From Candidatus Adlerbacteria bacterium (lineage in GTDB: Bacteria > Patescibacteriota > Minisyncoccia > Phycocordibacterales > SBAW01): a DNA stretch of 64,000 nucleotides. Below are positions 57,952 through 61,478 of the stretch, in pieces; positions within the stretch are counted from its first letter, which is position 1; every line of letters begins with the position of its first letter. The notes beneath the pieces were generated by a model that saw only the letters and a list, made by a program, of their open reading frames with translations, made no database searches and was not told where the DNA came from. The DNA is taken from assembly GCA_963749085.1 (NCBI GenBank), contig CAVVLG010000002.1, positions 370,085 to 434,084 of the forward strand. The letters are read 5' to 3'. A program made the translations under genes and the position numbers.

Positions 57952-58024
57952 TGCGGGCGCTAGGGATCGAACCTAGGACCTTTCGAGTATCAGTCGAATG
58001 CTCTACCAACTGAGCTACACCCGC
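57952..58024 (-). tRNA. tRNA-Ile: tRNA-Ile (anticodon GAU)
   Basis: Hand-folded: GCGGGTG/CGCCCGC acceptor, D-arm GCTC-AGTTGGTA-GAGC, anticodon stem TTCGA/TCGAA loop CTGATAC, T-arm CTAGG-TTCGATC-CCTAG. Confidence 0.85.
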
Positions 58025-58187
58025 AGTTTCGAAACTATATCAAAGGAAAAGTGCCTTTACCAGTTATCCACACATTTCTCAAATTCGGCTAAAAAACCCT
58101 TGCACTCTGAGCTGAGGGGGGTATAGTAAAAAAGTTTTCTGAGGATTGTCCTCAAATTTTGTCAGTAACTAACAATGCACATCAGAG

Positions 58188-58631
58188 ATGCAAACAACAA
58201 GTGCGCTCCGGGAAATAGTCCCGAGTAGCGCGGTAATCGGGCTTGATGACGAAGCAATTCGTCGCGATTATGAGGAGCAGGGCGCGTGGGGTCTTCTCAC
58301 GTCTATCGACCTGCATGAGTGCGATAGAGAGACAGTGCGCGATGCCGAGGCTATAAAACGCTTCGTGGTTGAGTTATGCGAGCGTATCGACATGAAGCGT
58401 TTTGGAGAGTGCACGGTCGTCAATTTCGGCGAAGATGAGCGCGTGGCGGGCTTTTCGATGTTTCAACTCATCGAAACCTCCTGCATCTCGGCACACTTTG
58501 CCAACCAGACGAACACAACCTATCTCGATATTTTCTCGTGTAAATACTATACGCCAGTCGAGGCGGCTGAGTTCGCCAAGGAATTCTTTGGTGCCTCAGA
58601 GTATAACCTGACGTATACGCTCAGGAAGTAG
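58188..58631 (+). CDS. speH: S-adenosylmethionine decarboxylase proenzyme (pyruvoyl-dependent, class 1B)
   Basis: 147 aa; WGLLTSIDLHECD, FSMFQLIETSCISAHF (E-S/S processing site), YLDIFSC. Confidence 0.85.
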   Translation: MQTTSALREIVPSSAVIGLDDEAIRRDYEEQGAWGLLTSIDLHECDRETVRDAEAIKRFVVELCERIDMKRFGECTVVNFGEDERVAGFSMFQLIETSCISAHFANQTNTTYLDIFSCKYYTPVEAAEFAKEFFGASEYNLTYTLRK

Positions 58632-58644
58632 AGGGGAAGTAAGA

Positions 58645-58680
58645 GCCCCGGCAAGCAAATGCCGGGGCCTTTTGGTGTTT
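58645..58680 (+). terminator. Rho-independent terminator after speH
   Basis: GCCCCGGCAagcaaaTGCCGGGGC followed by cttttggtgttt. Confidence 0.6.
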
Positions 58681-58732
58681 GGGGTTGCTCACCCCTTACA
58701 GATCGAGTTTTTCCTTTTTGTCAGATAAGTTT

Positions 58733-59583
58733 TAGAACCAGTCTCAAAAATAATGTTTGAGTAATAGCATGATGCACGCGAGCTTCACGAAGGCGGCAAA
58801 GTTCTGCAGTTTGTATTCGTAGCGAGTCACGAGCTTTCTCCAGTTGTGCATCCACGCGAACAGCCGCTCAATCTTCCACCGGCGCTTGTAGGAGCGCAGC
58901 GCCCTGCCGTCCTGTGTTGCTCTGCGCACCCGGCCTCTGCGATGCGGTGAAATGAGTTTGATGCGGTATTTGTTCAGGAGCGTTCCATCCAGCGGATCGG
59001 AATCATATGCTCGGTCAGCCGTGAGGCGAAGCGGATTCTGTCGGGTAAATCGCCGGGCAAGCGTGTCTTCAACCAACCGGACTTCGCTCGGAGAAGCAGA
59101 GGCCACATAGACGGCGACTGGAAGAGAGCCTTCGTCCGCAATCGCCATGATCTTGGTGCCTTTCCCACGCTTCGTGGGTCCCACGCCAAGACCCCCTTTT
59201 TTGCCCCCGCGAAGGTGGCATCGAGAAAGCAGCTCCTGAGCTTGATGCGCCCCCGGTATTCCATGTCCATGGCCAGGGCTTCGACGATGCGGTCAAAGGC
59301 GCCGCTCTCCACCCACTGCTGGAACCTGCGATGGCAGGTCTGGTAGGGCGGGTAGTCTTTCGGCAGGTGCTTCCACTGGGCGCCGGTCTTCAGTGCCCAG
59401 AGGATACCTTCCAGTATCTTGCGGTCGTCCTGCCGGGGACGGCCGCGGGTTTCCAAACGCTTGAGGGGTGTGACAAACGGAGCGATGACGCTCCACTGCT
59501 CGTTGGTGAGAGGCATGGGCAGGCAAATTACGGGTAACGCCCTGTGCCTTTAGTCTACAACGGTATTTTTGAGATTGGTTCTA
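58733..59583 (-). mobile_element. IS5-family insertion sequence, copy 2 (inverted relative to copy 1), flanked tTA...TAg
   Basis: OrfA 58974..59516 and OrfB 58744..59184 identical to copy 1. Confidence 0.85.
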
Positions 59584-59742
59584 GGAGCTTTAACCGCCAT
59601 TGGTCTTCGACGAGCTTGTGATGCCGGTCATGGCAGTTCATTCGCTACTCCTCGGTTGCCGCGGGACCACCCCACGAAAAACTATCCTACTGAGCTGAAT
59701 CTACCACGTTCCTTATTTTAAACAATGACTACAGTGGATAAC

Positions 59743-59773
59743 AAAAATCACCCCACATGGGGTAATTTTTGTT
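59743..59773. terminator. Bidirectional hairpin terminator (ACCCCACATGGGGT flanked by A-run and T-run), ~250 nt downstream of 16S 3' end
   Basis: acaaaaatcACCCCAcaTGGGGTaatttttgtt. Confidence 0.5.
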
Positions 59774-60019
59774 AAAAACTGAATACGTAATTGAGTCCAC
59801 ACCTAAGCAAACACCTTTCTCTTGTTCCGCTCTTTATCTATTTTCCGTTCTGTACTCCAAAACGTACTCTGTAGATATCAAGTAGCCATACGTCTCTGTA
59901 TTTACATACAGTGGCCAATAACGAATGCGATTTAGAGTTAGCATCATCACTCTACTTTCCTTGCGGAAAATAATCGCCGATTGAGTTGCACCCTCGTACG
60001 AGAGGCACAACACCATTTC

Positions 60020-61478
60020 ATTTGAATTATTCCACGAGCAGGTTCCCCTACCCGTGCCTTGTTACGACTTACTCCCTATCACCGAGCTTACCTTAGGTCC
60101 CGCTAGGCGGGAACTTCGGGCACTCCCGGCTCTCTTGAGTTGACGGGCGGTGAGTACAAGACTTGAGAACGTATTCACCGCGGTATAGCTGACCCGCGAT
60201 TACTAGCGATTCCGGCTTCATGAGGTCGAGTTGCAGACCTCAATCCGAACTGAGCACGCGTTTCTAAAGATTTGCTCCAGCTTGCGCTCTTGCATCTCGT
60301 TGTCGCGTGCATTGTATCATGCGTGCAGCCCAGGGTATCAGAGGGACATGCTGATCTGGCGTCATCCTCACCTTCCTCCCCCGTGAGGGGGCAGTCTCGC
60401 CTGACATATAAAACAGGCAACGAGGGTTGCGTTCGTTACCCCACTGAAGGGAACAACTCAAGCCACGAACTGACGACGACCATGCATCACCTGCCCAGCC
60501 GTCTTGCGAGGTCCAAAGTTTCCTAAGGATTTCGTCTGGGTTTCAAACCCTGGTGAGGTTCTTCGTTTGTCATCGAATTGAGCCGCATGATCCACCGCTT
60601 GTGCAAGTCCCCGTCTATTCCTTTGAGTTTTAATCTTGCGATCGTACTACCCAGGCGCATCACTTAACGCGTTAGCTTCGCCTCAAAGAGGGTCGATACT
60701 CCTTAAAGCCAGTGATGATCGTTTAGGGCGTGGACTACCGGGGTATCTAATCCCGTTCGATTCCCACGCTTTCGTGTTTCAGCGTCAGGAACGCGCCAGT
60801 AGAGTGCCTTCGCATTTGGTGTTCCCCATGATATCAACGGATTTCACCCCTACACCATGAGTTCCCTCTACCTCTCGCGTCCTCTGAGTCGTACCGTTTC
60901 TCCTGCATTTCCTCGGTTAAGCCGAAGAACTTTAACAAAAGACTAATACGACCGCCTACACACCCTTTACGCCCAGTGATTCCGGATAATGCTTGGGGCC
61001 TCTGTATTACCGCTCCTGCTGGCACAGAGTTAGGAGCCCCTTATTCATGAGGTAACGTCAATAACTTCCTCCCTCATAAAAGGTTTTTACGTCCCGAAGG
61101 ACTTCATCAACCACGCGGCGTCGCTCCGTCAGGCTTTCGCCCATTGCGGAAGATTCTCGACTGCAGCCACCCGTAGGTGTATAGCCCGTGTCTCAGTGCT
61201 ATCGGTGGGGGTCAGCCTCTCAGCTCCCCTAGGTGTCATAGCCTTGGTAGTCCATTACACTGCCAACTAGCTGATACCACGCAGGCCGCTCAAAAAGCGG
61301 ATTACTCCTTTAGTGTCGCCACGCCATCGGGAATTACCTACTCTTTCGAATAGCTATGCCCGACTTCTCGGTGCGTACCTGCGCATTACTACCTCGTCTG
61401 CCGCTCCCCTTGCGGGGCGCTCGACTTGCATGCCTTATCCACGCCGCCAGCATTCATCCTGAGCTAGGATCAAACTCT
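60020..61478 (-). rRNA. rrs: 16S ribosomal RNA (short, ~1.46 kb)
   Basis: 5' end AGAGTTTGATCCTAGCTCAGGATGAATGCTGGCGGCGTGGATAAGGCATGCAAGTCGAGCG (rc of 61478..); 515F/806R/1492R regions recognisable; AAGTCGTAACAAGG at 60058..60069(rc); helix 45 ends ~60033; exact 3' end uncertain. Confidence 0.9.

Follow-up and report, generated by a model that had tools for sequence, protein, structure and literature searches.

A probable stand-alone, ancestrally unlinked 16S rRNA transcription unit with a retained tRNA-Ile in an Adlerbacteria-like genome

The 16S rRNA gene and its neighbours

The subject of this analysis is a full-length 16S ribosomal RNA (rRNA) gene and its surroundings in a 64,000-nt stretch of contig CAVVLG010000002.1 (assembly GCA_963749085.1, Candidatus Adlerbacteria bacterium), called the window below. 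The gene occupies 60020-61485 on the minus strand (Rfam SSU_rRNA_bacteria, 1355 bits, model positions 1-1533), in agreement with an earlier note, made from the sequence alone, that placed its end near 60020. Beyond it lie a terminator-like hairpin, an insertion sequence (IS), the speH gene on the opposite strand with a hairpin of its own, and tRNA-Ile(GAU) in the 16S orientation, all at or near the places given in that note. Rfam finds one 16S gene, two tRNAs and one LOOT RNA in the 64-kb window, and no match to large subunit (LSU) or 5S rRNA anywhere in it. Because the minus-strand gene runs towards low coordinates, the 23S-free stretch that follows it is 60 kb (60,019 nt) and not the 11 kb of the earlier note, and 2,515 nt upstream are also free of 23S; any 23S gene would thus be 60 kb or more away on the downstream side, and 2.5 kb or more on the upstream side. 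On the downstream side this exceeds the 1500 bp above which Brewer et al. (bioRxiv 10.1101/705046) treat 16S and 23S genes as unlinked. A BLAST search with an E. coli 23S query gave no match to the window or to any of the related loci described below; it had no positive control and was not used as evidence, for which the Rfam scans serve instead. The far end of the window (1-1100) was considered as a 23S fragment and rejected, having zero rRNA match. This segment has a skew of G over C of +0.27, 56% GC and short, broken open reading frames (ORFs) only, and may be a frameshifted or repetitive Pro/Val-rich gene.

The 16S gene appears to have its own promoter. The top-scoring promoter-like site in the 56-64 kb part of the window (61715-61742, minus strand) reads TTGACT, a 16-nt spacer and TATACT, matching at 10 of 12 positions, and lies directly past the stop codon of the upstream membrane-protein gene. 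Transcription from this putative promoter, about 230 nt upstream, would yield a transcript in which the 16S is preceded by a leader and followed by a trailer of about 250 nt. Leader and trailer are complementary in two places on the minus strand. In the inner helix, CACUUUUCUCUUGUUCCG (61516-61533) pairs with CGGAACAAGAGAAAGGUG (59813-59830) at 18 of 18 positions, one of them G-U, and compensatory changes keep the pairing in relatives (for example ...UUGUUCCGUUCAU/AUGAACGGAACAA... versus ...GUGUUCCGCCUAUU/AAUAGGCGGAACAC...). In the outer helix, GUUGAAAACUGAAUACGUAAUUGAG (61623-61647) pairs with CUCAAUUACGUAUUCAGUUUUUAAC (59771-59795) at 25 of 25 positions, again with one G-U, and the same pairing is found in a close relative (L122). 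The two helices enclose the 16S in the manner of the leader-spacer helix of a canonical operon, and are plausibly substrates of RNase III, since bacteria of the candidate phyla radiation (CPR) retain this enzyme (PMC12641178).

The outer helix reaches as far as the base of a hairpin (59739-59774, 246-281 nt past the 16S 3' end) that resembles an intrinsic terminator on both strands, with an A-tract, a GC stem and a T-tract. Its perfect 16-bp stem (AACAAAAAUUACCCC/GGGGUGAUUUUUGUU) has a folding free energy (dG) of -21.8 kcal/mol (z = -6.0; 0 of 200 shuffles fold as well), and the GC-rich stem-loop is followed by a T-run on either strand, that on the 16S strand being GATTTTTGTT. The earlier note had described a bidirectional hairpin at 59743-59773 and a stand-alone 16S ending in a terminator, and the features found here bear this out. 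The position of the hairpin is kept in five relatives (L122, L123, L124, L125 and L128; z from -3.1 to -8.5), with differing stem sequences such as ACCCC/GGGGU, CCGCCC/GGGCGG and CCCCCGC/GCGGGGG. A terminator-like hairpin between 16S and tRNA-Ile is present in 43 of 71 loci, compared with 14.6 in mononucleotide shuffles. The predicted terminator would separate the 16S from the convergent speH unit. Directly past it, some relatives have about 300 extra nt with small called ORFs (L122 6739-7035, L123 996-1292, L125 about 6950-7260); this stretch is absent from the window, L124 and L128.

tRNA-Ile(GAU) is encoded at 57951-58024 on the minus strand (Rfam, ARAGORN). A putative promoter, the extended -10 box TGATATAGT (58034-58042, minus strand), ends 9 nt ahead of its 5' end, and a run of seven T follows the gene at 57941-57947. 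In 48 of 70 relatives the 60 nt ahead of tRNA-Ile contain the pattern TGnTAnnnT, compared with 8.5 +/- 2.7 in mononucleotide shuffles. Words of this type are also the most enriched ahead of start codons in the window, so TGnTAnnnT is very likely the -10 element of the lineage. Judging from these elements, the 16S and tRNA-Ile are most likely transcribed separately, the tRNA as a one-gene unit with its own promoter and T-run.

speH encodes an S-adenosylmethionine decarboxylase (58188-58631, plus strand; AdoMet_dc PF02675, 5.5e-23), is convergent with the 16S, and is followed by a terminator-like hairpin of conserved position (58645-58668, plus strand; dG -22.8, z -3.4). Many homologues of 70-85% identity occur in Adlerbacteria and other Patescibacteria. 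Those at the same place in L122, L124, L125 and L128 are 72-84% identical, and with speH so placed in the four closest lineages its recent insertion was ruled out. Sequence comparison thus places speH between 16S and tRNA-Ile in the ancestor of the sub-clade of closest relatives. Distant relatives have no speH in the 16S-tRNA-Ile gap, apart from a 45-aa remnant in L057 (Kaiserbacteria MFLV01000008.1). This remnant, 849-983 nt past the 16S anchor, is 58% identical to the SpeH C-terminus and lies between 16S and tRNA-Ile on the opposite strand; because of it, speH may once have occupied the gap in a wider group.

A conserved small ORF (59555-59641, minus strand; MNCHDRHHKLVEDQWRLKL...) lies on the 16S strand between the 16S and speH terminators. 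It is preceded by an extended -10-like box (59698-59706, minus strand; TGGTAGATT), a candidate promoter element with an aligned TGnTAnnnT in L122 and L124, and a covarying hairpin follows it. The alignment of L122, L123 and L124 gives MNCH(D/S)RH(H/D)KL...KLLK... as its product. Before the IS arrived, the window version encoded 23 aa (MNCHDRHHKLVEDQWRLKLLKLI; L122 has MNCHSRHDKLLEYEWQEKLLKLI); the IS has replaced the last four codons, and the frame now reads into the element. The long 16S-tRNA-Ile gaps of other relatives hold overlapping, unconvincing ORFs only.

A canonical rrn operon, as in E. coli rrnA, rrnD and rrnH, consists of 16S, tRNA-Ile(GAU), tRNA-Ala(UGC), 23S and 5S. The window shares with it a promoter-like site and long leader, a helix of the RNase III substrate type and a same-strand tRNA-Ile(GAU) as the first gene on that strand after the 16S. 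It differs in having no tRNA-Ala, 23S or 5S (Rfam and ARAGORN, in the window), and in having a terminator-like hairpin past the 16S trailer, a convergent gene before the tRNA and a putative promoter for the tRNA.

Gene order and 16S features in relatives

Relatives were collected by scanning a genome collection with the 16S helix-44 motif GTCAACTC, which gave 119 loci, almost all from metagenome-assembled genomes of Paceibacteria/Parcubacteria. The best full-length matches to the window 16S are 90-91% identical and partial ones up to 94%; several of the closest are labelled Adlerbacteria. Rfam was run on 65 loci, 58 from the helix-44 scan and seven closer ones, with up to 7.8 kb available past the 16S. 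A 16S was found in 62; the other three (L123, L124, L127) are contigs found through speH that end before it. None of the 65 has LSU or 5S rRNA past the 16S, whether or not an IS or island is present, and the unlinked arrangement is thus conserved at the level of the clade. The earlier note had proposed such a comparison, and its outcome favours the alternative offered there, in which the rRNA genes are unlinked throughout the lineage and the spacer tRNA is a relic; the published survey also agrees with this (10.1101/705046).

Among the 76 Paceibacteria-type loci with at least 2.5 kb past the 16S, 60 have tRNA-Ile(GAU) no more than 2.5 kb from the 16S end; it shares the 16S strand in 51 of them and is on the opposite strand in nine. 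tRNA-Ala is within this distance in one of the 76, and tRNA-Leu(CAG) is often next. The median distance from 16S to tRNA-Ile is 751 nt (70 relatives with a same-strand tRNA-Ile), and more than 40 loci encode SecF immediately ahead of the 16S. These counts, with the 65 loci, identify secDF, 16S and tRNA-Ile (then tRNA-Leu) without 23S as what appears from sequence to be an old and stable feature of the class.

The closest loci are the contigs of four speH homologues, whose 16S genes are 90.7-91.7% identical to that of the window. Their shared order is SecD, SecF, AAA_18 kinase(s), a 195-aa membrane protein, 16S (minus), speH (plus), tRNA-Ile (minus), in some a NUDIX gene, and tRNA-Leu (minus), with the terminator and the small ORF between 16S and speH. 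This order is a composite that no single locus shows in full: L128 has no tRNA or SecDF, the contigs of L124 and L127 stop short of the 16S, no tRNA-Leu is in range in L122, and L125 is without a homologue of the membrane protein. Three items only are new in the window relative to these loci, namely the IS, the islands and about 8 kb of non-syntenic DNA. Upstream of the 16S, the window has two tandem paralogous AAA_18 kinase-like genes overlapping by 7 nt (62339-63453, minus strand); relatives have one or two. In L122 an Rfam match to suhB/mmgR (9641-9716, 49.5 bits; gathering score 41) lies between the membrane-protein and AAA_18 genes; the window has none.

The 16S 3' tail after helix 45 (60020-60033) is GGAAUAAUUCAAAU and does not contain the anti-Shine-Dalgarno motif CCUCC. 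All Paceibacteria-type loci (L003-L121) share this property, and loss of the motif has been described in one Parcubacteria subgroup (PMC9297842). In relatives the tail co-varies with the adjacent downstream sequence as a small hairpin (UUCAAAUGAA, UUCCAAUUGGAA, AUCCAAUCGGAA), and the Peregrinibacteria loci keep a CUCC/UUCC tail that pairs with a downstream GGGAG/GGGAA. Of the 43 window ORFs that encode 150 aa or more, only two have GGAG, GAGG or AGGA at -20 to -4, where random windows give 4.8 +/- 2.0. The words most enriched before ATG are pieces of TGGTATAGT (ATAGT 13-fold). As these -10-like words often end 6-12 nt ahead of the ATG, many window genes appear to have little or no leader, in keeping with the missing anti-Shine-Dalgarno motif.

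Mobile elements around tRNA-Ile

IS copy 2 (58733-59584, minus strand) consists of 846 bp at 58736-59581 and a CTA target duplication on each side. IS copy 1 (48898-49749, plus strand), also flanked by CTA, interrupts a hybrid histidine-kinase gene (46930-49923, plus strand; MASE1, HisKA, HATPase_c and receiver domains) within its receiver domain. The inverted copies are identical at 856 of 858 positions of the reported repeat, and both differences fall in the flanks just outside the 852-nt element. The element encodes DUF4096 (PF13340, 8e-28) and DDE_Tnp_1 (PF01609, 4e-15) in two ORFs joined by an A_AAA_AAG -1 frameshift site. Its terminal inverted repeats are GAACCA(A/G)TCTCAAAAATA, and the CTA duplication sits within CTAG/CTAA. 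The DDE transposase of IS4/IS5 type, the inverted repeats and the target duplication assign it to the IS5 family, presumably to the IS427-like subgroup. Its length of about 850 bp, its inverted repeats, frameshift site and 3-bp CTA duplication are those of other two-ORF members of the family, and nothing in it is unusual.

With IS copy 2 removed, the window aligns colinearly across the junction with L122, L123 and L124 (926 nt at 78% identity in L124). The relatives thus have the empty site, and the alignment identifies the copy as an apparently simple, late insertion into a conserved intergenic region. Metagenome scans for IS-free strains with the IS-flank sequence and the degenerate small-ORF pattern gave zero matches. 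Removing copy 1 and one CTA restores the histidine-kinase frame (...GYNS-LVLVALTGYGQEED...). Inversion of the 9-kb segment between the two copies was ruled out, as the kinase frame is continuous across copy 1 and the flanks of copy 2 are colinear in relatives; the orientation of the tRNA is therefore original. This segment, which contains tRNA-Ile, speH, the islands, MscL and DUF389, would be a substrate for inversion and is prone to assembly breaks; one Logan contig (L002) coincides with it exactly.

Three direct copies of the tRNA-Ile 3' end are present (57951-57973, 56372-56393 and 54557-54573). Island 1 (56394-57950) contains an integrase C-terminal fragment (57361-57921, plus strand; PF00589, 4e-32) whose gene stops 30 nt short of the tRNA 3' end, an antitoxin-like ORF (57016-57222, minus strand) and a RelE/ParE-like toxin (56737-57006, minus strand). 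It ends at an attachment-site (att) remnant (56372-56393, minus strand; 90% identity over 69 nt, E 4e-16), beyond which the sequence flanking the tRNA 3' end recurs, with an integrase tail fragment of 61 aa (56199-56384). Island 2 (54574-56371) includes HicA/HicB (54811-55386) and ends at the third copy (54557-54573, minus strand; 17 of 17 nt, E 3.7e-4). A tyrosine recombinase gene beside the tRNA 3' end and direct repeats at the far borders, standing beside integrase fragments, point to a tandem pair of islands (1.6 and 1.8 kb), both heavily decayed, on the far side of tRNA-Ile. They resemble other tRNA 3'-end islands of tyrosine recombinases in the abutting integrase, the 22- and 17-nt repeats and the toxin-antitoxin cargo, and differ in their small size and in that both integrases are truncated. 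The larger fragment covers positions 27-170 of the catalytic profile and has no N-terminal SAM-like domain. For these reasons the islands are remnants no longer able to excise. The integrase remnants are those noticed in the earlier note, which had also suggested that integration at the spacer tRNA, with further insertions, broke the operon; the tRNA 3' end was indeed used, and it was not the cause of the unlinking.

tRNA-Leu(CAG) (46450-46532, minus strand; ARAGORN) lies 11.4 kb from tRNA-Ile in the window and 0.04-3 kb past it in relatives. About 8 kb of other, non-syntenic genes separate the two tRNAs here, and the NUDIX gene found between them in L124 and L125 is not in the window. The LOOT RNA (RF03000, 83 bits; 45520-45646, minus strand) is about 0.8 kb beyond tRNA-Leu; in the complete chromosome OY970290.1 (L063, 6099-6223) one likewise follows 16S, tRNA-Ile and tRNA-Leu. 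A 113-nt direct repeat (50651-50763 and 54655-54767; 84% identical; core TCCCGGTCGGGGGCAC...GGATATTTGAATGACGT.CGAACC.TCATTCTA) has zero Rfam match at gathering score, and one of its copies adjoins the third att remnant.

Origin of the arrangement

We regard the 16S gene as very probably an autonomous, ancestrally unlinked transcription unit of a Paceibacteria (Parcubacteria, Adlerbacteria-like) genome. The 23S would have been split off early in the history of the lineage, no later than the base of the Paceibacteria sampled here, and the ancestral break may have fallen between tRNA-Ile and whatever followed it. tRNA-Ile(GAU) would then be the sole surviving piece of the old 16S-23S spacer. Three events appear to be recent: insertion of the IS into the small ORF between terminator and speH, arrival of two tandem integrase islands, since decayed, at the tRNA-Ile 3' end, and gain of further non-syntenic DNA before tRNA-Leu. 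The IS and the islands are bystanders, acquired later in unrelated events.

Split rRNA genes are known from other bacteria. Borrelia burgdorferi has rrs-tRNA-Ala apart from tRNA-Ile-rrl-rrf, Buchnera has rrs alone and a tRNA-Glu-rrl-rrf unit, Thermus thermophilus has its 16S apart from 23S-5S, and Rickettsia and Helicobacter also have split units. The window shares with these genomes an independent 16S unit and, with Borrelia, one spacer tRNA beside the 16S. It differs in the tRNA retained and in the neighbouring genes, and its arrangement is common to a class-level radiation. Unlinked rRNA genes in the Patescibacteria are themselves already known: Brewer et al. (10.1101/705046) list the phylum among the clades with exclusively unlinked rRNA genes. 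What the window shares with their Patescibacteria/CPR genomes is non-adjacent 16S and 23S genes, as a conserved trait of a clade with small genomes. That survey classifies by 16S-23S distance and, as far as the accessible text of the preprint goes, does not describe the retained tRNA-Ile(GAU) with its putative promoter, the conserved helices and terminator, and the upstream SecDF synteny presented here.

Several points weigh against an old, autonomous unit. The search for 23S and 5S in the source genome covers the 64-kb window, and the helix-44 sample covers Paceibacteria and a few Peregrinibacteria, not the whole CPR. The shuffles behind the terminator (43/71) and TGnTAnnnT (48/70) counts keep mononucleotide composition only. 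Relatives with the shortest 16S-tRNA-Ile gaps (about 210-310 nt) mostly have no terminator-like hairpin, so co-transcription of 16S and tRNA-Ile may persist in some lineages. In the window itself, transcription could conceivably pass the hairpin, enter the small ORF and continue antisense to speH.

These last points bear on the possibility that 16S and tRNA-Ile still form one operon, in which the hairpin stops antisense transcription from speH or attenuates, and tRNA-Ile is made partly by read-through from the 16S. The symmetry of the hairpin, with T-runs on both strands, would suit such a role, as would the hairpin-free short gaps and the 51 of 60 loci with tRNA-Ile on the 16S strand. It is nevertheless unlikely, given that in the window and its closest relatives a convergent speH with its own terminator stands between the two genes and read-through would be antisense to it, that an 846-bp IS lies in the path, that the promoter box of tRNA-Ile is conserved, and that nine loci have the tRNA on the opposite strand.

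It is also conceivable, although decidedly improbable, that 16S, bidirectional terminator, 23-aa Cys/His-rich micro-ORF, convergent speH and separately promoted tRNA-Ile form a selected cassette in which micro-ORF and speH are tied to ribosome production. If so, separate promoters would set the levels of 16S, tRNA-Ile and polyamines independently, speH being a gene of polyamine synthesis, in hosts whose ribosomes have no anti-Shine-Dalgarno tail and whose mRNAs look leaderless.

The favoured explanation of the earlier note, that a recent ancestor had an intact 16S-tRNA-Ile-23S operon and that this was broken in this genome by islands at tRNA-Ile and by the IS and speH insertions, is very unlikely. 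It would account for the use of tRNA-Ile as an integration site at least twice, for the near-identical IS copies, which indicate recent transposition, and for the 11.4 kb of non-syntenic DNA between tRNA-Ile and tRNA-Leu. A recent break is unsupported, however, because all 65 relatives are without 23S past the 16S irrespective of IS or island, and because the islands lie downstream of the tRNA and total only about 3.4 kb. There is also no 23S in the 58 kb past the tRNA, relatives with a 16S diverged by 9% have speH in the same position, the IS is a simple late insertion, and the terminator and helices are conserved around the 16S alone.

Equally hard to credit is a spare or decaying 16S copy, with a complete rrn operon elsewhere in the genome. 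The tail without anti-Shine-Dalgarno motif could suggest decay, but it is clade-wide and published (PMC9297842); the score of 1355 bits over the full model is within the 1292-1386 of the relatives, and promoter, helices and synteny are conserved. An assembly artefact, with the 16S joined to the wrong downstream sequence through rRNA or IS repeats, can practically be dismissed even though short-read Logan contigs of the same organism break in the 16S and at both IS copies, because the 18/18 and 25/25 pairing of leader and trailer assigns both flanks to one locus and because flanks and order recur in dozens of independent assemblies, including the 682-kb chromosome-level L063.

The locus is thus a case from genome scanning in which something striking on the local scale turns out to be ordinary once the lineage is considered. 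What the ancestrally unlinked unit adds to the published statement is its anatomy: tRNA-Ile(GAU), and not tRNA-Ala, is kept beside the 16S across Paceibacteria, the 16S appears self-contained with its own helices and putative terminator, tRNA-Ile would have acquired or kept an extended -10 promoter, and the secDF-16S synteny appears very old. This anatomy will not surprise specialists; it should be useful for annotation, for the binning and scaffolding of CPR genomes, and for primer and long-read rrn-amplicon designs that assume 16S-23S linkage.

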